A DNA stretch of 64,000 nt from an uncultured Chitinophaga sp. Its GTDB lineage: Bacteria > Bacteroidota > Bacteroidia > UKL13-3. The notes beneath the pieces are model-generated. The model was not told where the DNA came from. It searched no databases and saw nothing but the letters and a program-made list of their open reading frames with translations. Where the stretch lies: assembly GCA_964603255.1 (NCBI GenBank), contig CAZRVA010000002.1:1159-65158 (forward strand). The letters run 5' to 3'. Below, piece by piece: positions 10,198 through 25,436 of this stretch; position 1 is the stretch's first letter; every line of letters begins with the position of its first letter. A program made the translations under genes and the position numbers.

Positions 10198-10228
10198 AAA
10201 AGCCTCCAATAACTTTGGGGGCTTTTTT
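10198..10228 (+). terminator. Rho-independent terminator
   Basis: Stem AGCCTCCAA (10201-10209) / TTGGGGGCT (10215-10223) with one G-U pair and a 5-nt loop, followed by a T6 run. Confidence 0.75.
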
Positions 10229-10287
10229 GTGGGGTGATGTTTTAATATGAGTTAATAAAGTTGTATCTTTTGTTTGGATATTTACTG

Positions 10288-10587
10288 TTATTCATTTAAC
10301 CTGCTTTCAATATCCATTTGTTGATGCAATATCCTGATGATTTCAATTTCGTTTTTTTTAGCGTTGAACTTATAAAAAATAAGATGAGATTTAACCTTCG
10401 ACTTGTAATAACCTTTTCTAATATGGTTGCAGTTTGTTCCTGATTCAGGGTGATTCGCCAAGTATTCAAATTCGTCAATAATTAACTTAAAATACCTATC
10501 AGCTTGCTCTATAGACCATGTTTCAAAAGTGTAAAGCCATATGTTTTCAATATCATTTTGGGCCTCTTTACTAATTTGATAAGCCAT
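10288..10587 (-). CDS. parE: Type II toxin, ParE/RelE family
   Basis: 99 aa with ParE-like pattern (AQNDIENIW.Y, ADRYFKLI, HPESG, HLIFYKF...IEIIRILHQQMD). Its start overlaps the parD stop (TAATG). Confidence 0.85.
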   Translation of the reverse strand: MAYQISKEAQNDIENIWLYTFETWSIEQADRYFKLIIDEFEYLANHPESGTNCNHIRKGYYKSKVKSHLIFYKFNAKKNEIEIIRILHQQMDIESRLNE

Positions 10588-10835
10588 TATTTTGAAACAT
10601 ATTTTTGATGGATAGTTTTTAAAAAATTATCTCTATCAAAGTTTTTAACGAAACCAGATTTTTCTCCCTTCTTAAGTTCGCTAATAAGTTCCGCCTTTTT
10701 GGCCTCTTCTTCTTCAAATAACCTTAATGCCGCTCTTACCACCTCACTCGCTGATGAGAACTTTCCTGAATTAACTTGTTGACTGATGAAATTATCAAAA
10801 TAATCACCTAACAGTATTGAAGTATTTTTAGCCAT
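10587..10835 (-). CDS. parD: Type II antitoxin, ParD (ribbon-helix-helix, ParD1/3/4 type)
   Basis: 82 aa: MAKNTSILLGDYFDNFISQQVNSGKFSSASEVVRAALRLFEEEE matches the conserved ParD antitoxin N-terminus. Translationally coupled to parE. Confidence 0.85.
   Translation of the reverse strand: MAKNTSILLGDYFDNFISQQVNSGKFSSASEVVRAALRLFEEEEAKKAELISELKKGEKSGFVKNFDRDNFLKTIHQKYVSK
10588..10835. repeat. Direct repeat copy 1 (parD coding sequence)
   Basis: Hand alignment with 11670-11917 at a constant offset of 1082 bp: 248 bp, 5 mismatches, all transitions. Identity stops at the ATG on one side and about 2 nt before the stop codon on the other. Confidence 0.9.
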
Positions 10836-10856
10836 AACTTTAAATTTGAATCAAAG

Positions 10857-10873
10857 ATACCAATTATTGGTAT
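10857..10873. promoter_or_regulatory. Candidate parDE operator palindrome
   Basis: ATACCAAT-T-ATTGGTAT, perfect 8-bp arms, 22 bp upstream of the parD start codon. RHH antitoxins typically autoregulate through such palindromes. Confidence 0.4.
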
Positions 10874-10938
10874 AAAGAACAAGGGTAAAAAAATCTTGTA
10901 CAAGACTCATCAATTACTGCTGATTTTCATCTTGGTTA

Positions 10939-11130
10939 TTACCATTCCAACAATTCGTTCAACGCATCTTTGTGGGAAACAAAATCACCTTGCTCTATGC
11001 TTGCAACAGCCTCATTTATCTCTTTATTGTATTGTTTTAACGATGATCTTTTAGCCTCATCATCAACATGTAAAAAGCTTTTAATCATCTCCAATACCAA
11101 TACCTGCTGTTTGGCACTTAAAAGAGGCAA
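10939..11130 (-). CDS. Small hypothetical protein (antitoxin-like helical protein; start uncertain)
   Basis: 63-aa ORF starting at TTG. The in-frame upstream extension to the stop at 11182-11184 contains no ATG. Sequence (LVLEMIKSFLH..., EINEAVASIEQGDFVSHKDALNELLEW) resembles small addiction-module or antitoxin-type components, but I cannot name a family. Confidence 0.3.
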   Translation of the reverse strand: MPLLSAKQQVLVLEMIKSFLHVDDEAKRSSLKQYNKEINEAVASIEQGDFVSHKDALNELLEW

Positions 11131-11303
11131 ATAGGTATCTATTTGTTTTTTATAGCTGATAATGTCATGACTTTCGATTATTTATTTAAATATTAGCCAA
11201 TATTACAAAACCGCAAAAGCCTTTGTATGCTTAAAACTGTTTCAAAAGTGTTCAACTCGTTTGGACTGATTTTGATGTGAGCATCAACAATTGCTATATA
11301 TTA

Positions 11304-11633
11304 TCAATTAGACGAGTTAACAAAATTATCTTCCAGCTTCACGTTAAAATGAATCTCGGCTTTTAATGCTTTAAATACTTTCAAAATAGTGGCAACAGTA
11401 GCGCTATTTGCACTAGATTCTAACTTAGATATTTGAGCCTTTTGCACGCCTACTAACTTACCCAATTCTTCCTGAGTTAAATTTCGTTCTTGCCTTGCTG
11501 CTTTTATCATTTTACTTAGTACATCCATGCTGAGTTCATACTCATAACTATCGCGTTCCTTCGAACCTACCTTACCGATGTACTTATCCTTCATTTCGGC
11601 AAGTGTTTGTATTTTTACTTTTTGGGTGGCCAT
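11304..11633 (-). CDS. XRE-family helix-turn-helix protein, HigA-like antitoxin architecture (no cognate toxin adjacent)
   Basis: 109 aa with a C-terminal HTH (LTQEELGKLVGVQKAQISKLES) after a roughly 45-aa N-terminal segment, as in HigA2-type antitoxins. It lies 35 bp downstream of parD copy 2. Confidence 0.6.
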   Translation of the reverse strand: MATQKVKIQTLAEMKDKYIGKVGSKERDSYEYELSMDVLSKMIKAARQERNLTQEELGKLVGVQKAQISKLESSANSATVATILKVFKALKAEIHFNVKLEDNFVNSSN

Positions 11634-11668
11634 AAGTTATGCTACTATTCTGAAGTGTCACTAACTTG

Positions 11669-11917
11669 CTATTTTGAAACATATTTTTGATGGATAGTTT
11701 TTAAAAAATTATCTCTATCAAAGTTTTTAACGAAACCAGATTTTTCTCCCTTCTTAAGTTCGCTAATAAGTTCCGCCTTTTTGGCCTCTTCTTCTTCAAA
11801 TAACCTTAATGCCGCTCTTACCACCTCACCCGCTGATGAGAACTTTCCTGAATTAACTTGTTGACTGATGAAATTATCAAAACAATCACCTAACAGTATT
11901 GAAGTGTTTTTGGTCAT
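11669..11917 (-). CDS. parD: Orphan ParD antitoxin, second copy
   Basis: 82 aa, differing from the 10587-10835 product at 3 residues (A2T, Y12C, S29G). No parE follows it. Confidence 0.8.
   Translation of the reverse strand: MTKNTSILLGDCFDNFISQQVNSGKFSSAGEVVRAALRLFEEEEAKKAELISELKKGEKSGFVKNFDRDNFLKTIHQKYVSK
11670..11917. repeat. Direct repeat copy 2 (parD coding sequence)
   Basis: See copy 1: 248 bp, 5 transition mismatches, offset 1082 bp. Confidence 0.9.
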
Positions 11918-12098
11918 AGGTTGAATTTAAAAGTAGTGTACTTGTTTCAGCAAAGTGTGTTTTTAGAACTAATCATCAATTCAAAGCAAATTCGCCATAA
12001 CATTATACCTTATAAAATATGATTATCATAAAACAAACACCAAATTCAATATCACTATATACATAATTTATGTTTCTCTTATTAGAATGTATAAAGTG

Positions 12099-12902
12099 TT
12101 ATTTACACCTTCTGTATTCGCTGGCATCTTCTGGAAATTTGCTGATGTATAGATCTATATAAGTACAGTACTTTTGTTTTGCCTCTGATGCACTAACAAA
12201 ATCATAAATCTGACGTCTCTCTATTTCTCCATATATCCAAATCAAGAACTTTAGACAGTTTTTTTGGCTGTACGAATCATCTGCGTAATCCAAGGCGATT
12301 GTACCAAAATGTATAGCTTTTTTATAGCTCATATCTTTATAATTAGGAGTTGCATATATCGATGCTATAGCTCCAAAAGCTTTGCATTTAATTGCGGACT
12401 CTTCGGATGAATCTATTATCAATTGATATATCTGAATTGCCTTATCATCTTGACCCAACAATTCATAATTTAGGGCTTTCCAGTCATAAATGTATATTAT
12501 TTCATGTATTGATTTACCGCACTGAGCATTAACTCTAATAGCGAGATCAAAATCCGTGTTCGATTTTTCATAAAACCCTAATAGATGATTACATATCGCC
12601 CTTAATCGGAATATATTGTGACATTGGTTTTCTGAATTATCGATTACAAAATTTACATCTCGATTTTCATCTTCATGAAAGCCAAGATAATGTCTTGCAT
12701 AGGCCCTTATTTCATATGCTTCAAGACATTTTGGATTGAGACTTATGGCTTTGGTCGCATCTTTTATGGCTTCTTCATATCTTAAATTTTCTAGATGAAT
12801 GTCTGCGGATGTAAGACACTTTTTCCAATCAGACTGGCCGAGCAAAACAAATGATGAAAACATCAATAACGTAAATAGCTGGAAGTGTTTGGTTAATGGC
12901 AT
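12099..12902 (-). CDS. Secreted TPR/Sel1-like repeat protein
   Basis: ORF 12099-13004. I prefer the internal ATG at 12902 (MPLTKHFQLFTLLMFSSFVLLGQ is a signal peptide). Repeated helical A-x-x-Y/A motifs follow (YEEAIKDATKAISLNPK, LEAYEIRAYARHYLG, KAIQIYQLII). Confidence 0.55.
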   Translation of the reverse strand: MPLTKHFQLFTLLMFSSFVLLGQSDWKKCLTSADIHLENLRYEEAIKDATKAISLNPKCLEAYEIRAYARHYLGFHEDENRDVNFVIDNSENQCHNIFRLRAICNHLLGFYEKSNTDFDLAIRVNAQCGKSIHEIIYIYDWKALNYELLGQDDKAIQIYQLIIDSSEESAIKCKAFGAIASIYATPNYKDMSYKKAIHFGTIALDYADDSYSQKNCLKFLIWIYGEIERRQIYDFVSASEAKQKYCTYIDLYISKFPEDASEYRRCK

Positions 12903-12938
12903 ATCATTATATATTTTTGAGCAAATATAAAAGAAAAC

Positions 12939-13217
12939 ATGAACTTGGTTGGCAAATGGAAATCTTCTAACTCTGATGATATTATAACATTGGAGGAACA
13001 TCAATTTAGTGATGATACATATTACTTCAAAAAAAACAACTTAGAATCTGAGGTGGTAAAAGTTTTATTCGGAGTCCCAAACAATGTTGGAGTAATCAGG
13101 TTTACAGAAAGGTCTAATTATCCTATTGCTCAAATAATAATTCATGACCATAACTTCATTGAAATAACTGAAAATGGTTTTACTACGCGTTTGATTAAAT
13201 CTACAATAACAGTATAG
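12939..13217 (+). CDS. Hypothetical small protein
   Basis: 92-aa ORF divergent from the TPR gene, compatible only with the shortened TPR start. It begins MNLVGKW, as many lipocalin-like small beta-barrel proteins do. Weak call. Confidence 0.3.
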   Translation: MNLVGKWKSSNSDDIITLEEHQFSDDTYYFKKNNLESEVVKVLFGVPNNVGVIRFTERSNYPIAQIIIHDHNFIEITENGFTTRLIKSTITV

Positions 13218-13342
13218 GTTTATTTAATACTTACTTTAGAAATTAAATACATAGTGTAACATACTTGATTAATTATTTCAACCACATTGAATCGGCTTTC
13301 ACAGTTATTTTAAATCTATATTTCTAGGTTCAAACAAATAAT

Positions 13343-14362
13343 TCAATGTCGAATTTCTTTTATTTTATATGTAGTGCCTCCAAGATGGCATATTTCCAGC
13401 GGAATTGAAGAAAGGTTTAAATTGTAACTATCCATTACACAAAGTTCAATACTAAAATTTTCTTGAATAACCTTATTGAAAAGGGCAGTTTTAATTAAAG
13501 CATCTTTTGATCTAAACCTCAATTTATATTCAAACTGTCCAACCGTCTCAGTCTCTTCACCAAAATAAAAGTTAAAGCCTAGGATTATTTTTATCACGGA
13601 TGCGCTGGAATAGGAAATTAAACGCTCTTGTGAATTGAAGTTAAACTCTGCATTAGAAAAGCGACCTGATACTTTAAAACATTTTTTCATATCTGGTAGG
13701 CAAAAAAAGCGAAATTCATCTTCATATTTCCACGGTTCTTTTTTTATTAATGACGTAACAAAAAAACCAAGACTCTTGTCAATTTTACTGAAATCTATTG
13801 GCTTTACCTCAGATAAGTAATTAATTGGATAAGGACCAAGAAAATTATCTCCAAAGTTTTCGAAATCGAATTCAACTAAGAAACCTCTATTATTAGTGTA
13901 ATGTGCCCATAGGAGGTCGTTATATTTGTCTTTCGTCATACATAGTATTCCGAAATTAGAAATCCAAGAAGCGTATAGACTATTCCTAATTTCCTCCAAA
14001 AAATTGATTTTATCATCTCTAAACTTCCTGTAGAATTCTAATCTCTCTCTTTCATTACTAGCAAGCACATTTATTTCAGAGAAGCTGAGCCCAGAAAAAT
14101 CAATTAAGTTCAAATTAAAATCAAACAAATCATTAAAATCATCGGGTTGTGAAACGTAGAATTTATTATTAATAAATGCCATTGCACTATTAAAATTTAA
14201 AACATAATACTTTGAAAGTGATTTGGGTACAACATAATCTTTGTCTGGTATTACACTTAACAATGGAAGTTTATTCTCATTATTGTTATAATCACTAATA
14301 CAATAATCCCAGCCGTTCAATTTTAAGTTCATGTTTACAGATTTATTTTTTTTCATTAACAA
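13343..14362 (-). CDS. DUF2971 family protein
   Basis: 339 aa with the blocks I associate with DUF2971: FYVSQPDDFNDLFDF, GILCMTKDKYNDLLWAHYTNNRGFLVEFD and KKEPWKYEDEFRFF. Confidence 0.65.
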   Translation of the reverse strand: MLMKKNKSVNMNLKLNGWDYCISDYNNNENKLPLLSVIPDKDYVVPKSLSKYYVLNFNSAMAFINNKFYVSQPDDFNDLFDFNLNLIDFSGLSFSEINVLASNERERLEFYRKFRDDKINFLEEIRNSLYASWISNFGILCMTKDKYNDLLWAHYTNNRGFLVEFDFENFGDNFLGPYPINYLSEVKPIDFSKIDKSLGFFVTSLIKKEPWKYEDEFRFFCLPDMKKCFKVSGRFSNAEFNFNSQERLISYSSASVIKIILGFNFYFGEETETVGQFEYKLRFRSKDALIKTALFNKVIQENFSIELCVMDSYNLNLSSIPLEICHLGGTTYKIKEIRH

Positions 14363-14498
14363 ATCAACTGTTTCAATTTATACAAGTCAATTAACTCCTA
14401 CTAGCTTTCTAAGTATCAAATCACAATTTTGAGAGTTCATTCGCCAAATTAGTATCGTCTTTTCCTAATTCCGTAAATTAAATACTAGATTTTATTTT

Positions 14499-18010: not shown

Positions 18011-19561
18011 ATGAGCGACAAAAGAATTACCGATTCAGGAATCGAAATCCAATCGTTATACACCACTCCAATTAAAATGGAGGATTTATCAGGACAGTTT
18101 CCATACACCCGCGGAATACAGCCCGACATGTATCGTGGTCGTCATTGGACCATGCGTCAGTACGCAGGTTTTAGTACTGCAGAAGAAAGCAACAAACGAT
18201 ACAAGTACTTGCTAGCTAACGGCACCATGGGTTTGAGTGTGGCGTTTGATTTACCAACACAAATTGGTTACGATAGCACACACATGATGAGTGAAGGTGA
18301 AGTTGGAAAAGTTGGTGTAGCTATTGATACTTTACGCGATATAGAAATTTTATTTGATGGTATTGAGTTGGAAAAAATCACCACATCAATGACTATCAAT
18401 GCTACTGCCTCTACCCTATTGGCTATGTACATTGCCTTGGCAAAAAAACAAGGTGCAGATATTCAAAAAATTTCTGGAACTATTCAAAACGATATCTTGA
18501 AAGAATACGCTGCACGCGGTACTTACATTTATCCGCCTAAGCCAAGCATGCGCATTATTACTGATATTTTTGAGTATTGCAGTAAAGAGGTTCCTAAATG
18601 GAATACCATATCTATTAGTGGTTACCACATACGCGAAGCCGGAAGTACCGCAGTTCAAGAAATTGCATTTACTTTAAGCAACGCCAAAGCATATGCGCAA
18701 GCTGCAATTGAAAAAGGATTAGACATTAATGTTTTCGGACAACGTTTATCGTTTTTCTTTAACGCTCATAACAACTTTTTTGAAGAGATTGCTAAGTTCC
18801 GCGCAGCACGTAGGATGTGGGCTAAAATGGCCAAAGAACTTGGAGCTACAAATCCTAAAGCACAAATGTTACGTTTCCACACACAAACCGGAGGAAGTAC
18901 TTTACAAGCGCAACAAGCTGATACCAATATTGTACGTGTTACCCTACAAGCTTTAGCTGCTGTAATGGGCGGTACACAAAGTTTGCATACCAATGGATTT
19001 GATGAAGCATTAAGTTTACCTACCGAAAATGCTGCTCGTATTGCTTTACGTACACAACAAATAATTGCGTATGAAAGTGGCGTAGTAGATACTGTTGACC
19101 CAATGGGCGGAAGTTATTTTGTAGAAGAACTAACCAACCAAATTGAAGCCGAAGCATGGAAATACATCGAAAAAATTGATGCCATGGGTGGTGCAGTAAG
19201 TGCCATTGAGGAAGGTTACATGCAAAAAGAAATTGCAGATGCGAGCTACCGCTATCAAACAGCAATTGAAAATAATGAGAAAGTAATTGTAGGCGTTAAT
19301 AAATTCACAGTTCAAGAAGAAGTTGCTCCTCCGCTATTTAAAGTGGATGATAGCATCCGAAAAATTCAAACCAAAAAAATTGCTAAGGTTAAAGCCGACC
19401 GCGATGAAAATAATGTTCAGCAGCTTTTGGCCAAATTAGAACAAAACGCAAAAGATGGCAGCAACGTAATGCCAACTATCATTGAGTCGGTTGAAGCTTA
19501 TGCAACTTTGGGTGAAGTAGCAGATGTGTTCCGCAAAACATTTGGTGAATACAGGGCATAA
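18011..19561 (+). CDS. Methylmalonyl-CoA mutase family, large (substrate-binding TIM-barrel) subunit without a B12-binding domain
   Basis: 516 aa: [38 protein letters not shown]...[16 protein letters not shown]. No C-terminal DxHxxG cobalamin-binding module. Confidence 0.85.
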
Positions 19562-19572
19562 TTAATACAACT

Positions 19573-20658
19573 ATGAATAAGAATCCAAACCATATCAGTT
19601 CACTTTTAATCGAGAACTTTAAGTCTGTTAAACACCTCGAAATTAGCCCAAGGCGAATTAACATTTTTGTTGGAAAACCTAATGTGGGTAAAAGCAATAT
19701 ACTTGAGGCCATATCGATGTTATCGAACACATCTACCATCAATGATGTGGTTAGATTCTCTCATACTTACCAATTGTTTTATGATAATGATGTCACTCAG
19801 CCGGTTAAGATATTTACGAATTTGATTTCTGCTATATTATCTTCTGAAAATCAATCAACAGGATTTAGGTATTTAATCGGAAATGTTGGGAAAATTATCG
19901 AAGCAACACTCAAACTAATTGAAGATGGAAATTTTTTTTCGTTAAATGATTCTATTTCACCACAAGTAAAAATTAATAATCAGAATCTAAGTATTAATCG
20001 AAAAATTATTGATGAATTGGGTAAAATATATCATCACGAAAGTTATGGAATAAACCTTGAAAGCAACATAAAGCGCTATTCTTTTTCATCAAGGAGCAGT
20101 GCATTGTCAAATTCATTTAATTCAGGTTTTTTAAACCCGCCACATGGCGATAACTTATTCACCATCTTGTCTACTAATAAATCATTAAGACAAGATGTGG
20201 TTTCCTTTTTTGAAGAGTATGGTTTGGAGTTTTTGATTGACCAAGCCAACAAAACATTTGAAATTCAAAAAAGAATTGACGGATTGTCTTACAAATATTC
20301 TTACGATTTAATTGCAGATACTTTAAAAAGAATAATTTTCTATTTAGCTGCAATAAAATCAAACAAAAATGCTGTAATTTTATTGGAAGAACCCGAGGCT
20401 CACTGCTTTCCTCCCTATATTGCAAGGATTGCCAAGGAAGTTATTGAAGCAGAAACCAACCAATTTTTCATTGCAACGCACAGTCCTTATTTATTAAACA
20501 CAATAATAGAAAATTCAAAATTTGAGGATATAGCTGTATACGTGAGTTCGTTTAGTGATTATCAAACCAAGGTTAGAAAACTAACTGATGAAGAGTTGAC
20601 AGAAATGCTTGATTTTGGCACGGATGTTTTCTTTAATTATGATGCCTTTGTAGAATAA
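19573..20658 (+). CDS. ABC/SMC-like (OLD-family type, AAA_15/AAA_21-like) ATPase
   Basis: 361 aa with Walker A GKPNVGKS (19672-19695), signature-like IADTLKRII, Walker B VILLEEPE (20374-20397) and H-loop ATHSPYLL. Confidence 0.7.
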   Translation: MNKNPNHISSLLIENFKSVKHLEISPRRINIFVGKPNVGKSNILEAISMLSNTSTINDVVRFSHTYQLFYDNDVTQPVKIFTNLISAILSSENQSTGFRYLIGNVGKIIEATLKLIEDGNFFSLNDSISPQVKINNQNLSINRKIIDELGKIYHHESYGINLESNIKRYSFSSRSSALSNSFNSGFLNPPHGDNLFTILSTNKSLRQDVVSFFEEYGLEFLIDQANKTFEIQKRIDGLSYKYSYDLIADTLKRIIFYLAAIKSNKNAVILLEEPEAHCFPPYIARIAKEVIEAETNQFFIATHSPYLLNTIIENSKFEDIAVYVSSFSDYQTKVRKLTDEELTEMLDFGTDVFFNYDAFVE

Positions 20659-20667
20659 CCCTTGCCT

Positions 20668-21162
20668 ATGGACACGAGAATCATACCCGAATGTTACATA
20701 GATACAACACTTATTGAAGTGCTTGGATTTGGAAAAACTAATCATAAACTCAACAATAGCGAGGTAATTAAAACACTAGAACAAAACGGCTACAACAATA
20801 CAATTGGCATTGGGCTTATCGACAGAGATAAAAATCAACCACGAAGTTTAAAAGAAAAGTACCAAGTTATTAGGAGACTAGATGATTTAGAACTTTACCA
20901 AAAACGTGATAACTCAAAACGCTTTATAATCGTCCATCCAGTTATCGAAAAATGGATAGATGATGAAGCTGAAAAATATCAAATAAGTAGAGTTAAATAC
21001 GGCTTACCACAAGACTTCAAAGCTTTTAAAAATATCACCAAAGACATCAACATCGGTAAGAAGCCCGGTATTAAAAATTATTTGAGTGCTATTCAAAATC
21101 AACAAAACTCAGGCTTTAAAAAACTTAAAGACCTTATCACAGACTTACTAAACAATGCGTAG
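20668..21162 (+). CDS. Small Toprim-like protein (DUF4435/RloB/DUF4276-like candidate), partner of the upstream ATPase
   Basis: 164 aa from ATG 20668 (ORF track TTG 20662). N-terminal IIPECYIDT (Glu codon 20689-20691), GLIDRDKN (DxD, 20821-20829) and FIIVHPVIEKW. The E...DxD spacing fits a Toprim fold. Confidence 0.5.
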   Translation: MDTRIIPECYIDTTLIEVLGFGKTNHKLNNSEVIKTLEQNGYNNTIGIGLIDRDKNQPRSLKEKYQVIRRLDDLELYQKRDNSKRFIIVHPVIEKWIDDEAEKYQISRVKYGLPQDFKAFKNITKDINIGKKPGIKNYLSAIQNQQNSGFKKLKDLITDLLNNA

Positions 21163-21892
21163 CTCTCATCTAAAATACGTCTTATGGTTGATGCTGGCTG
21201 TTGTATCTTGCAGCGGACCTTATCAACTGGCCAAACACAACGACAACAATATTAAAGTAATTGCCGATAGCCTGCAATTGTATGATACTGCCATTGCCAA
21301 CTTAATTGCACCATACAAGTTAAAACTTGATGCGCAAATGAATGAGGTAATTGGCGAAGCAGAAAACACCTTAACCAAAGAATTGCCCGATGGTACATTA
21401 GGTAACTTTGTTGCAGACGCCTGTTTGTGGTACGCACAAAATAACATTACTGCTCAAGCAGATTTTTGTGTGTTAAACTCAGGAGGGGTGCGCATACCCA
21501 ACATACAAAAAGGCAATATAACAGTTGGTAAAATATACGAGTTAATGCCCTTTGATAATTTAATTGAGGTGGTTGAATTAGACGGTAAATCTTGTAAAGA
21601 GCTTTTTACTTGGATAGCAAAATGGAAGGGCGCACCTGTTAGCGGAATTGAACTTACCTTAGATAAAGGCGAAGCAACAAACATCAAAATTAACGGGCAA
21701 AACTTTAACGAATCAAAAACTTACTTAGTAGCAACTACAGATTATGTAGCAAATGGAGGCGATAATGCTACCATGTTTGCCAGAGGAAAACGCAGCAATA
21801 ATAACTACAAGTTGCGCGATGCCTTGATTGATTACGTAAAGAATAAACAAACCATTAAAGCCAATAACAATGGACGCATCAAACAAAATTAA
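21155..21892 (+). CDS. 5'-nucleotidase C-terminal (substrate-binding) domain lipoprotein
   Basis: 245 aa with lipobox LMLAVVSC|SGP. GNFVADACLWY...VLNSGGVRIPN..GNITVGKIYELMPFDN matches the UshA-type 5'-nucleotidase_C domain. Confidence 0.75.
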   Translation: MRSSHLKYVLWLMLAVVSCSGPYQLAKHNDNNIKVIADSLQLYDTAIANLIAPYKLKLDAQMNEVIGEAENTLTKELPDGTLGNFVADACLWYAQNNITAQADFCVLNSGGVRIPNIQKGNITVGKIYELMPFDNLIEVVELDGKSCKELFTWIAKWKGAPVSGIELTLDKGEATNIKINGQNFNESKTYLVATTDYVANGGDNATMFARGKRSNNNYKLRDALIDYVKNKQTIKANNNGRIKQN

Positions 21893-22817
21893 CAGAAGGG
21901 GCTTTATTAAAACCGGAGCCAAACTTGGTGCATTGGCTTTGTTAAATGAGTTTCCGTTAAGTGCATTAGCCAAACCAGATTTGGTTAAAATAAGTATACT
22001 GCACACCAACGATTGGCACAGCCGCATCGAGGCTTTTCCTAAAGACGGTGGGAGATTTGCCGGCATGGGTGGTGCTGCAACACGTGCAGCCTTAATCAAA
22101 AAGATACGCAGTGAAGAAGAACATGTGTTGTTGTTAGATGCAGGAGATATATTTCAAGGTACACCCTACTTTAATTTTTTTGAAGGTGAACTTGAATACA
22201 AATTAATGAGCGAAATGGGTTATGATGCCGTAACCCTTGGTAATCATGACTTCGATAATGGCATTGAAGGTATCATCAATCAATTACAACACGCCAAATT
22301 CGATATTATAAACTGTAACTACGATTTTAGTAAAACCCTTTTGGCCGATAAGGTTAAGCCTTACCGCATATTTAAAAAAGGTGGTGTTAAAATTGGTTTA
22401 ATTGGAGTAGGTATTGAGTTAGAAGGATTGGTACCTAAAGATTTATATGGGGATATTATTTACCGTAACCCGGTTGATCTTGCCAGTAAACTAGCCAAAG
22501 AGCTAAAAACAGAAAAAAAATGTGACGCAGTTATTTGTTTATCGCACCTTGGTTTTGAATACCAAAACGATAAACTAAGCGATAAAAAACTGGCCGAAAA
22601 ATCATCATATATTGATTTGATAATTGGTGGCCATACCCACACATTTTTACCTAAACCTATTACCATAAGAAACCAACAGAATAAAGACGTAATTATCAAC
22701 CAAGTAGGTTGGGCAGGTTTACAACTTGGCAAGATAGATTTATTTTTTGATAGTGCTAAAAGCCTAGTAAACACTGGTATAGGCGCTAATCTATACATAA
22801 ACCCAAAACAGTGTTGA
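21870..22817 (+). CDS. Metallophosphoesterase (UshA-type N-terminal catalytic domain) with a twin-arginine signal
   Basis: 315 aa with Tat motif NRRGFIKTGAKLGALALL and metallophosphatase motifs ILHTNDWHS, DAGDIFQGT, GNHDFDNG, GGHTHT. Confidence 0.75.
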   Translation: MDASNKINRRGFIKTGAKLGALALLNEFPLSALAKPDLVKISILHTNDWHSRIEAFPKDGGRFAGMGGAATRAALIKKIRSEEEHVLLLDAGDIFQGTPYFNFFEGELEYKLMSEMGYDAVTLGNHDFDNGIEGIINQLQHAKFDIINCNYDFSKTLLADKVKPYRIFKKGGVKIGLIGVGIELEGLVPKDLYGDIIYRNPVDLASKLAKELKTEKKCDAVICLSHLGFEYQNDKLSDKKLAEKSSYIDLIIGGHTHTFLPKPITIRNQQNKDVIINQVGWAGLQLGKIDLFFDSAKSLVNTGIGANLYINPKQC

Positions 22818-23046: not shown

Positions 23047-24483
23047 ATGACTGATAAAACTGCCGAAAGTGTTTGGAATAACTGTTTGAAACTGATTCAA
23101 GACAACGTATCACCACAAAGTTTCAAAACATGGTTTGAGCCAATCAAACCCGTAAAACTCGACAATAAGATATTGACTATACAAGTTCCAAGTCAGTTTT
23201 TTTATGAGTGGTTAGAAGAACACTATGTTACCTTATTAAAAAAGACCTTAAAACAAGAATTAGGTCCAGGCTCTAGATTAGAGTACAATATTATAGTGGA
23301 GAACAGCAGCAACAATGCTAACCCATACGTTGTTAATTTACCCGGCAGTAACAACCATAAATCAGATACTCAAAATGTAGGTATGCCGCTTAACTTAAGC
23401 AGCAATATCAAAAATCCTTTTATTATACCGGGTTTAAAAAAGGTTAATATAGATAGTAACTTAAATCCATCTTTAAACTTCGATACTTTTATTGAAGGTG
23501 ATTGTAACCGTTTAGCCCGTTCGGCAGGTTTTGCGGTTGCTAACAAACCTGGTGGTACTTCGTTTAACCCTTTAATGATTTTTAGCGAAACCGGATTGGG
23601 TAAAACCCACTTGGTACAAGCTATAGGTAACATGATTAAGCAAAACAGCAAAAACAAAGTTGTATTGTATGTGCCTGTAGAGAAATTTACTAACCAATAC
23701 GTGGAGTCGGTTCGCAACAACAGCAGTCAAGACTTTTTAAACTTTTACCAAAACGTTGATGTATTAATAGTTGATGATGTTCAGTTTTTGGAGAACAAAC
23801 AAAAAACGCAAGAAATCTTCTTCACCATTTTCAATCACTTACACCAACAAGGTAAACAAATAATATTAACCAGCGACCGTGCGCCTAAAGATCTAAAGGG
23901 TATGGACGAGCGTTTGTTATCGCGTTTTAAATGGGGTTTATCATGCGATTTACAACAACCAGATTTTGAAACACGCCTAAGTATATTAGAAACCATGATG
24001 TACAATGATGGTATTACTTTAAGCAGAGATGTGGTTGAGTACGTTGCACACAACATTAATAACAACATACGTGAGTTACGTGGAGCATTGGTTTCGTTAT
24101 TGGCACAAGCATCATTAAACCGCAAAGAAGTTACGCTTGAATTGGCTAAACAGATCTTGAAAAACTTCGTTAAAAATTCTTCACGCGAAATTTCAATTGA
24201 GTTTATTCAAAAATTAGTTTGCGATTACTTCACCATTCCGGTTGATTTGGTAAAATCAAAAACACGTAAACGCGAAATTGTACAAGCCCGTCAAATCTCA
24301 ATGTATTACGCAAAAGATTTAACAAAGGCATCGTTAAAAACCATTGGTATGCACTTTGGTGGCAGAGATCACTCTACAGTTATACATGCTTGCCAAACTG
24401 TTAACGATTTAATTGAAACAGACAAAAAGTTTAAATCAGATATTGAAGAAATAGGAAAGCGTATTAAAATCAACTTGGTTTAA
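23047..24483 (+). CDS. dnaA: Chromosomal replication initiator protein DnaA
   Basis: 478 aa with Walker A SETGLGKTHL, Walker B LIVDDVQFL, sensor/box VII region and C-terminal DNA-binding HTH (IGMHFGGRDHSTVIHA). Confidence 0.95.
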   Translation: MTDKTAESVWNNCLKLIQDNVSPQSFKTWFEPIKPVKLDNKILTIQVPSQFFYEWLEEHYVTLLKKTLKQELGPGSRLEYNIIVENSSNNANPYVVNLPGSNNHKSDTQNVGMPLNLSSNIKNPFIIPGLKKVNIDSNLNPSLNFDTFIEGDCNRLARSAGFAVANKPGGTSFNPLMIFSETGLGKTHLVQAIGNMIKQNSKNKVVLYVPVEKFTNQYVESVRNNSSQDFLNFYQNVDVLIVDDVQFLENKQKTQEIFFTIFNHLHQQGKQIILTSDRAPKDLKGMDERLLSRFKWGLSCDLQQPDFETRLSILETMMYNDGITLSRDVVEYVAHNINNNIRELRGALVSLLAQASLNRKEVTLELAKQILKNFVKNSSREISIEFIQKLVCDYFTIPVDLVKSKTRKREIVQARQISMYYAKDLTKASLKTIGMHFGGRDHSTVIHACQTVNDLIETDKKFKSDIEEIGKRIKINLV

Positions 24484-24662: not shown

Positions 24663-25436
24663 ATGAAATTATCTATCATTCATAACGAACTATTGTTGGA
24701 TTACCTGCAAGTAATTCCAGATGATATACAACAGTGCTTTGATGCATTGAAAGATGCAGAAATTTCTACACCTAACTTCAGCTTTTATACCTCGGTTGCT
24801 TCGGTTTTTAGTAGTAAGATTGAAGGTGAAAATATTGAATTAGATTCATACATCAAACACAAACGAGACGCGATTCCTTTTCAACCCAATTACACAAAAA
24901 AAATTGATGACTTATACGATGCTTACGTTTTTGCCCAGCACAACACACTAAACGAAAGCAACATTAAAGAAGTACATAAACTTTTAAGTAAGCATCTTGT
25001 AGAACAAACATGGCTAGGTAAATACCGTACTCAAAAAATGTACGTGGCCACTGATGATGGTAGGATTGAATACGTGGCAGCTTTACCACAAATAGTTCCA
25101 ACAGAAATGGAATTATTTTACAACGACATAAAAACACTTCTATTTGCTGAGTTAAACATTAACGAAGTGCTCTTTTATGCCGCTATGATACACCTGGTAT
25201 TTGTAAAAATACACCCTTGGAATGATGGAAACGGCAGAAACGCCCGTTTATTAGAAAAGTGGTTTTTAGCAGAAAAACTAGGCCCAAAAGCATGGTTTAT
25301 TCAAAGCGAAAAAATGTATTACAACCAACACAAAACCTACTACAAAAACTTAAGAAGATTGGGATTGGAATACGAGCACTTAAACTATTTAGAAGCATTA
25401 CCCTTTTTGTTGATGTTACCTAATAGTTTAAAATAA
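24663..25436 (+). CDS. Fic/DOC family protein, class II (intramolecular inhibitory helix)
   Basis: 257 aa with Fic active-site motif HPWNDGNGRNAR (25212-25247) and an N-terminal inhibitory motif S-x-x-x-E-G (SSKIEG, 24810-24827). Confidence 0.8.
   Translation: MKLSIIHNELLLDYLQVIPDDIQQCFDALKDAEISTPNFSFYTSVASVFSSKIEGENIELDSYIKHKRDAIPFQPNYTKKIDDLYDAYVFAQHNTLNESNIKEVHKLLSKHLVEQTWLGKYRTQKMYVATDDGRIEYVAALPQIVPTEMELFYNDIKTLLFAELNINEVLFYAAMIHLVFVKIHPWNDGNGRNARLLEKWFLAEKLGPKAWFIQSEKMYYNQHKTYYKNLRRLGLEYEHLNYLEALPFLLMLPNSLK

Follow-up and report, generated by a model that had tools for sequence, protein, structure and literature searches.

A paired OLD-like ATPase and candidate miniature Toprim protein inserted among core genes upstream of dnaA in a Chitinophagales clade

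What is a candidate anti-phage system doing inside a string of housekeeping genes? The question is raised by a 64,000-nucleotide stretch of DNA from an uncultured Chitinophaga sp. (Bacteroidota; contig CAZRVA010000002.1, positions 1,159 to 65,158; hereafter the window), in which two adjoining genes, 1.6 kb in all, lie between a methylmalonyl-CoA mutase gene and a 5'-nucleotidase gene, with dnaA 1.9 kb downstream. The first encodes an ATPase and the second a protein of 164 amino acids (the small protein). An inspection of the letters and their translations (the sequence-only reading) had proposed that the pair is an OLD-type ATPase-nuclease split into two genes and serving in defence; both open reading frames and all of the motifs that it cited are present where it had placed them. 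By analogy with known systems, we judge it probable, with some reserve, that the pair is a self-contained OLD-like defence or abortive-infection module, in which the ATPase would act as sensor and regulator and the small protein as a mini-Toprim nuclease effector.

By its motifs and profile matches, the product of the first gene is a genuine ABC ATPase of the OLD-like clade that is not assignable to any single named system. It contains a Walker A motif (GKPNVGKS, residues 34-41; 19672-19695), a signature-like motif (IADTLKR, residues 247-253, within LIADTLKRIIF and about 20 residues ahead of VILLEEPE), a Walker B motif (VILLEEPE, residues 268-275) and an H-loop (THSP within ATHSP, residues 302-305). 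The order of these elements, including a Walker B of the hhhhDEPE type, is kept, and their columns are invariant in nine homologues that include distant Bacteroidota. Two Pfam families match above their gathering cut-offs: AAA_15 (PF13175; 1.7e-16, 61.3 bits against a cut-off of 32.1) and AAA_21 (PF13304; 9e-14, 52.7 bits against 27), the latter spanning residues 29-309 and profile positions 1-304 of 304. The PADLOC models matched are those of AriA (the best, 1.9e-19), ATPase-Toprim_I-B (7e-18), HEC-01A (2.5e-17), PDC-M38A (1.6e-17, full length) and AbiLi (8.5e-15, near full length), with further matches to Old, GajA, NsnB and PtuA. These Pfam and PADLOC matches uphold the earlier assignment to the OLD, AriA, GajA and AbiLi type. 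NCBIfam matches to the retron Eco8 effector, PtuA and MAD3 (1e-9) all fall under the equivalog cut-offs. In the Protein Data Bank (PDB), the sequence profile comes closest to chains of an AAA family ATPase (9n69), RecF and the retron Ec83 ATPase, with lower scores for PtuA and structural maintenance of chromosomes (SMC) heads.

The two genes form a conserved, obligately paired module. The contexts examined were those of the window clade (eight lineages; loci L001-L011), Bacteroides, Pedobacter, Lacibacter, Sphingobacterium and one archaeal provirus. In all of them the small gene lies 0-10 nt downstream of, or overlaps, an ATPase gene of the same type (293-361 aa), so that the pairing seen in the window, from which a two-gene module had been proposed, holds throughout. 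The archaeal copy resides in an integrated pleolipovirus, Geoglobus ahangari pleomorphic virus 1 (L198, BK065157.1, 5364-6805), where gp15 is the ATPase, 36% identical to that of the window over its full length (E 5e-74), and gp16 is the partner, with 149 aa and the conserved residues kept. Winged helix-turn-helix regulators flank this archaeal module, and a RelE/ParE toxin gene lies 2.5 kb away.

Outside the window clade, the genomic surroundings differ from one another. The Pedobacter copy has an ISL3 transposase and an integrase nearby. In Lacibacter cauensis (L096, VLLE01000008.1, 3383-13446) the pair lies in an apparent defence island, with a PDC-S02/YhcG-type PD-DExK nuclease (4e-139) and two HTH_3 genes upstream, and four genes of unknown kind followed by a Drt8 defence reverse transcriptase (1e-156) downstream. 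A tblastn search of both proteins against plasmids (PLSDB) returned only a truncated ATPase remnant from Parabacteroides and no plasmid-borne pair.

No hidden Markov model (HMM) in Pfam, PADLOC, NCBIfam or PHROGs matched the small protein, and only nine close relatives emerged when 5.8 billion proteins were searched by word index. When 1.84 billion cluster representatives were searched exhaustively with a HMMER profile, 802 clusters were recovered at E<1e-3, 282 of them at E<1e-10; the family size of about 800 refers to clusters at 50% identity. Among the matches listed, lengths are about 100-190 aa, most being 150-190 aa. A second profile search listed 658 proteins; those listed are without any Pfam domain, the entries that carry a source name are all called 'hypothetical', and the named organisms are all Bacteroidota: Bacteroides, Pedobacter, Lacibacter, Sphingobacterium and Ginsengibacter. 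The family is patchy and mostly of Bacteroidota, with the archaeal provirus in addition.

Conservation within this family centres on a small set of residues. Over 275 members, E8 (in IIPECYIDT; 20689-20691) is conserved in 99%, C9 in 95%, D12 in 93% and H26 in 96%, D52 and D54 (in IDRD; 20821-20829) each in 100%, K55 in 93%, P91 in 92% and E94 in 88% (both in HPVIEKW, residues 90-96), and K125 in 96%. The acidic cluster E8/D52/D54, which had been picked out by eye, is invariant in an alignment of 69 members and reaches 99-100% in the larger set.

Scans of the 69 members one by one gave weak matches: MAD4 was matched by nine of them (best E 1e-3), RloB by two (best E 0.034) and AbiLii by one (E 0.009), and four HEC-01B models, PDC-M03B (4.5e-5) and DUF4276 were also matched. 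These matches recur on Mad4, HEC-01B, AbiLii and RloB and not on other folds; both DUF4276/Mad4 and RloB are placed in the Toprim superfamily (PMC12065111). When ten randomly chosen family members were scanned for a MAD4-aligning region, none matched MAD4, and a sequence-profile search of the PDB with the family alignment returned only noise.

An AlphaFold2 model of the small protein, built from the 69-sequence alignment, has a predicted local distance difference test score (pLDDT) of 95.2 and a predicted template modelling score (pTM) of 0.89. Its N-terminal domain (about residues 1-91) is alpha/beta and its C-terminal domain (about 93-164) is helical, and its elements run in the order strand 5-7, helix 10-18, a loop, helix 30-38, strand 47-52 (with the DxD), helix 59-64, a hairpin at 65-79 and strand 85-90, followed by four helices. 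E8 follows strand 5-7 and D52/D54 end strand 47-52, which is the placement of the Toprim Glu after beta1 and DxD after beta3. The additional features of the OLD type are also present: D12 four residues after E8, E94 at the start of helix 93-103, and K125 in the helical domain.

In the OLD protein of Burkholderia pseudomallei (BpOLD), metal A is bound by E400 and D455/D457 and metal B by E404 and E508; the helical domain contributes E508, from its first helix, and also the active-site residue K562, from a later one (PMC6755086). E8, D12, D52, D54, E94 and K125 of the small protein parallel BpOLD E400, E404, D455, D457, E508 and K562, a correspondence drawn by order and structural element, not by superposition. 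Among the PDB matches listed by Foldseek, the C-terminal region of BpOLD (6nk8_A) has the top TM-score (TMq 0.40; E 0.36, non-significant). The E-x3-[DE] motif occurs as well in TsOLD (LLVEGYGD) and GajA (LIEGPSE). Because of the OLD-like order of catalytic residues, the order of secondary-structure elements, the top TM-score to BpOLD and the recurrent weak matches of members, the best reading is that the small protein is a miniature OLD-type Toprim nuclease, a prediction at the level of motif and topology that is not statistically proven.

Several results weigh against a defence module with a Toprim effector. Neither in sequence nor in structure does the small protein match any Toprim family with statistical significance. 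Foldseek searches of the PDB and BFVD with a shallow (pLDDT 81) and a deep (pLDDT 95) model gave nothing below E 0.1, the lowest E being at least 0.17, and in the high-confidence model strand beta2 is not clearly called. Alignment of the family by hhalign with a six-sequence profile of OLD C-terminal regions gave a non-significant P of 0.24, and the majority-consensus sequence of the 275 members matched nothing relevant in Pfam, NCBIfam or PADLOC. Known defence neighbours accompany the pair in just one of four unrelated contexts, and HEC-01, the most similar candidate architecture to have been tested, did not protect E. coli in the one test reported (bioRxiv 10.1101/2024.01.29.577857). In all observed members of the window clade, moreover, the pair occupies one and the same site, with a native-like GC content at third codon positions (GC3); it is thus less patchy than typical defence genes, although these loci were retrieved by way of the gene itself.

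The non-significant profile alignment nonetheless registers E8, D12 and the DxD with P2 Old E398, E402 and D453/D455, with the glycine after beta2 in register as well. A homologue search with the P2 Old C-terminal region yielded only five fragments, and two scans of viral contigs added only two distant sequences to the OLD profile; alignment of the family with the single P2 Old sequence was likewise non-significant. Of the minimal Toprim fold proposed by the sequence-only reading, the residue order and topology fit, whereas the families that it named are not recovered, the Pfam models of DUF4435, RloB and DUF4276 being non-significant for the window protein and Foldseek returning nothing at E<0.1.

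The lack of a significant Toprim match by sequence or fold leaves room for the small protein to be something other than a nuclease, for instance a non-catalytic adaptor or an enzyme of another kind, such as a phosphatase or receiver-like domain; its acidic cluster would bind metal to some different end, and its OLD resemblance would be convergent. CheY, whose fold has a metal-binding acidic cluster, is indeed among its weak local Foldseek matches. We regard this as unlikely, since six conserved residues fit the OLD two-metal site by order and element, including the Glu and Lys of the helical domain, the small protein is coupled exclusively to an OLD-type ATPase, and the matches of its relatives recur on Mad4, HEC-01B, AbiLii and RloB rather than on other folds. 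A PIN-like fold was considered separately and rejected, because PIN domains have no DxD motif and VapC-type structural matches were absent.

A separately encoded ABC ATPase and Toprim nuclease is an established kind of system, represented by PARIS, AbiL, MADS3-4 and the candidate HEC-01, with Old and Gabija as fused ATPase-Toprim versions (PMC11464382, PMC10568477, bioRxiv 10.1101/2024.01.29.577857). PARIS resembles the window module in having two genes, an AAA_15/21 ABC ATPase (AriA) and then a separate Toprim-type effector (AriB), and AriA is the model that the window ATPase matches best. PARIS is often borne by viruses or mobile elements (PMC11464382); the window module, too, has one virus-borne homologue. 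However, AriA has 464 aa in solved chains, against 361 aa for the window ATPase, and in the position of its helical coiled-coil insertions (PMC11464382) the window ATPase has a short hypervariable insert of about 100 aa. AriB is a DUF4435 protein of about 35 kDa, whereas the window partner has 19 kDa and no match to DUF4435 (PF14491), a family that is also not among the 25 Pfam families most matched by the 69 members.

AbiL (AbiLi with AbiLii-RloB), MADS (Mad3-Mad4) and HEC-01 likewise combine a split ATPase with a small Toprim-like partner (PMC11464382, PMC12065111, bioRxiv 10.1101/2024.01.29.577857). The window ATPase matches AbiLi, HEC-01A and MAD3, and some members of the partner family weakly match MAD4, HEC-01B, AbiLii, RloB and DUF4276. 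The window protein itself, however, has no AbiLii/RloB (PF13707) match, neither it nor the family consensus matches MAD4 (NF047734), and no significant DUF4276 (PF14103) match was obtained; MADS is moreover multigene and methylation-linked, and no methyltransferase gene adjoins the window pair.

With the OLD family (P2 Old, TsOLD, BpOLD and GajA) the module shares its ATPase clade, a predicted effector with a Toprim and a helical domain, and the residue order E, E/D four positions on, DxD and, in the helical domain, a Glu in the first helix and a Lys in a later one. OLD proteins differ in that both parts are fused into 520-600 aa instead of being encoded by separate genes, and the C-terminal region of BpOLD has about 205 aa, compared with 164 aa for the window effector, whose OLD likeness is at the motif level only (see the hhalign and Foldseek values above). 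Since its small protein gives no significant match to the partner domain of any named split system, the module is not filed under PARIS, AbiL or MADS. On sequence grounds, it looks like an uncatalogued relative of the PARIS/AbiL-type two-gene systems, smaller than any named split system.

The most variable part of the module is a domain inserted between the two lobes of the ATPase (Table 1). Nearly all divergence of the ATPase is concentrated in residues 83-185: identity to the window in this segment is 42% in L007 and 39% in L009, compared with 94% and 90% in the C-terminal lobe. The same pattern occurs within the species of the window, represented by L003 and L004, in which the flanking DNA is 98-100% identical and the small gene is identical. 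Against these two loci the ATPase is 95% identical over residues 1-82 and 100% identical over residues 196-361, but only 64% identical over residues 83-195 (synonymous divergence dS 1.18) and 60% over residues 83-185. The alternative insert allele lies at 4407-4715 of L003.

These identities suggest that the insert is an old, divergent allele that has been exchanged by recombination as a cassette within the species. A hypervariable cassette would be expected of a recognition domain, and we propose that the insert is a sensor or partner-binding region. In AriA, the PARIS ATPase, the domain that binds the trigger is a structural feature separate from the helical insertions (PMC11464382).

The case for defence is circumstantial and is made by the homology of the ATPase, the variable contexts of the pair, Drt8 beside one homologue, the virus-borne copy and the sensor-like hypervariable insert. 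PARIS (AriA/AriB), AbiL, MADS3-4 and P2 Old serve as models by analogy for how such a module might work; for the window pair we infer the Toprim fold, the nuclease activity, the formation of a complex, the trigger and the defence phenotype. An oligomer of the ATPase would sequester or regulate the nuclease and keep it inactive until a cue derived from a phage or mobile genetic element is sensed through the hypervariable insert domain. ATP binding or hydrolysis would then release or activate the nuclease, which would cut DNA or tRNA by two-metal catalysis and so abort the infection. In the putative active site, metal A would be held by E8/D52/D54 and metal B by D12/E94, with K125 stabilising the transition state.

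The same components could instead make up an addiction or selfish module akin to a toxin-antitoxin system, in which the ATPase restrains a nuclease toxin and the pair is kept by the lethality of losing it and not by any protection against phages. A tight two-gene operon with overlapping or near-overlapping genes is compatible with this explanation, as are the Pfam wording for AAA_21 ('putative AbiEii toxin, Type IV TA system' domain), the constant site of the pair in every observed clade member and the RelE/ParE toxin gene 2.5 kb from the archaeal provirus copy. Nevertheless, the hypervariable insert is better explained by a changing external target, and plasmid-borne copies were not found in PLSDB. 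Addiction thus seems improbable as the whole account, although it overlaps mechanistically with abortive-infection defence and is not truly exclusive of it.

How the pair came to lie among core genes is clarified by the corresponding junctions in related genomes, which were sought in 80 species representatives (seeded with the mutase) and 80 metagenome contigs (seeded with the Metallophos gene). In at least ten sister lineages (L012, L014, L015, L016, L058, L079, L106, L107, L135 and L143) the mutase is directly followed by the nucleotidase, with a gap of -1 to 165 nt, and the synteny of mutase, nucleotidase-C, Metallophos and dnaA is otherwise the same. None of the 160 neighbour-seeded loci contains a member of the small-protein family. 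The Metallophos-seeded scan found no close relatives of the window clade (at most 61% identity) and so has no bearing on presence within the genus, but it did add empty sites. In the nearest empty-site lineages DnaA is 84-86% identical to that of the window; in the carriers DnaA is 95-99% identical and the pair just 50-81%.

Because the pair is absent at otherwise syntenic sister junctions, it is a lineage-specific insertion: the compared loci indicate that the module entered the mutase-nucleotidase junction in the ancestor of a single narrow clade of Chitinophagales. Whether it is instead universally conserved at this junction had been set as a test, and the empty sister junctions show an accessory insertion in a core-gene string. 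As the carrier loci were found via the gene itself, they do not establish fixation within the clade.

Two carriers depart from the common layout. In L008 (1758-2756), the most divergent carrier, the pair is about 50% identical and DnaA 95% identical to those of the window; a gene for a MeaB-like GTPase separates the mutase-like gene from the ATPase gene, and the small gene is about 95 nt from the nucleotidase gene, with no overlap. In L010 (1303-2384) the ATPase is split into two short open reading frames beside an intact small gene. With a coverage of 2.2x for this locus, the split could be a sequencing error rather than a pseudogene; L011 has the same small protein, and its ATPase is uninterrupted up to the end of the contig.

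Total GC content is 0.314 in the ATPase gene (z = -2.0) and 0.329 in the small gene (z = -1.4), compared with 0.398 in the mutase gene and a mean of 0.365 over 44 open reading frames in the window that have 120 aa or more and were taken as genes. GC3 is 0.279 and 0.309 against a mean of 0.306 and is therefore ordinary. The pair is thus more AT-rich than the mutase, as the sequence-only reading had remarked, but the low total GC with ordinary GC3 reflects amino-acid composition and not foreign codon usage, and the hint of a foreign origin is weak. Recent horizontal transfer, as read from GC, was rejected on the same ground.

Both genes are under purifying selection. Between the window and L007, where dS is saturated, the ratio of nonsynonymous to synonymous substitution rates (dN/dS) is 0.036 in the ATPase gene and 0.054 in the small gene; overall it ranges from 0.04 to 0.08. 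Such low values indicate that both genes are kept by selection and, together with the many homologues of both, that they are real genes and not chance open reading frames. A housekeeping role, for example as a co-opted RecF/SbcC-like ATPase and nuclease acting in repair or replication near oriC and fixed in the clade, would agree with this selection, with the ordinary GC3, with the position upstream of dnaA in probable co-transcription with core genes and with the matches of the ATPase N-terminus to RecF and SMC heads, but is very unlikely given the empty sister junctions, the homologues in unrelated contexts rich in mobile elements and in a virus, the patchy and mainly Bacteroidota partner family, and the hypervariability of the insert inside one species, a pattern not typical of housekeeping enzymes.

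The pair fits closely into its surroundings. The gap from the mutase stop (19561) to the ATPase start is 11 nt, that from the ATPase stop (20658) to the small-gene ATG (20668) is 9 nt, and the nucleotidase ATG (21155) overlaps the end of the small gene (21162) by 8 nt; the earlier values for all three proved exact on re-measurement. A scan of the + strand from 19561 to 21162 found no terminator-like sites, and a check for repeats around the pair found no meaningful ones, in agreement with the lack of flanking repeats noted before. The pair is probably co-transcribed with the mutase and nucleotidase core genes.

Table 1. Coordinates of the paired module and adjoining genes in the window
Feature	Position	Strand	Basis
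ABC-type (AAA_15/AAA_21, OLD-like) ATPase gene, 361 aa	19573..20658	+	
ATPase insert domain (about residues 83-185), after the Walker A lobe and before the signature/Walker B lobe	19819..20127	+	Identity profiles
Small partner gene, 164 aa from ATG (alternative in-frame TTG at 20662 gives 166 aa)	20668..21162	+	
Methylmalonyl-CoA mutase large subunit gene, upstream boundary of the insertion	18011..19561	+	Pfam MM_CoA_mutase on the identical L001 gene
Split 5'-nucleotidase pair, downstream boundary	21155..22817	+	Pfam on the identical L001 genes and synteny
5_nucleotid_C gene of the nucleotidase pair	21155-21892		
Metallophos gene of the nucleotidase pair	21870-22817		
dnaA, beyond the nucleotidase pair	23047-24483		

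In many of the retrieved Bacteroidota loci (L102-L181), the nucleotidase consists of a 5_nucleotid_C lipoprotein gene and a slightly overlapping Metallophos gene directly upstream of dnaA. A functional tie of the pair to the adjoining nucleotidase was rejected, since the nucleotidase has a lipoprotein-type signal sequence and the pair has none.

Two other parts of the window have an accessory look. A Fic-domain gene (257 aa, GC 0.34; 24663-25436) lies directly 3' of dnaA in the window and in L001, whereas in the carrier L007 its position is occupied by GldD, CNNM and SSB genes; with this difference in position, it is probably another accessory insertion. Beyond ftsK, the - strand of a low-GC stretch (about 10200-14400) encodes an XRE-type helix-turn-helix protein of 109 aa (11304-11633), a TPR-like protein of 301 aa (GC 0.33) and a 339-aa protein with the lowest GC of the window (0.30), and the stretch may be a second accessory islet.

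Beyond the window, the pair may belong to a widespread but uncatalogued family of minimal split-OLD immune modules, present in Bacteroidota and archaeal viruses, whose 19-kDa effector would be the smallest Toprim-plus-helical nuclease known and which here would be fixed in a core operon by dnaA/oriC, with its insert swapped between strains. This wider proposal is tentative, and rather less secure than the defence reading of the pair itself; if true, it would make the pair a domesticated, constitutively co-expressed component of innate immunity with swappable specificity. The principle is not new, immunity by an ATPase plus a Toprim nuclease having been established through Old, Gabija, PARIS and AbiL. 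An active module would nevertheless add a compact, easily cloned ABC-ATPase/Toprim defence system, and its effector of 164 aa would show what the minimal catalytic core of an OLD-type nuclease is. The exchange of the insert within a species would offer a natural experiment for mapping trigger recognition by such sensors. Because the partner is invisible to PADLOC-DB v2, Pfam, NCBIfam and PHROGs, model-based defence inventories of Bacteroidota, in which the family is abundant, gut Bacteroides included, would be missing this module.

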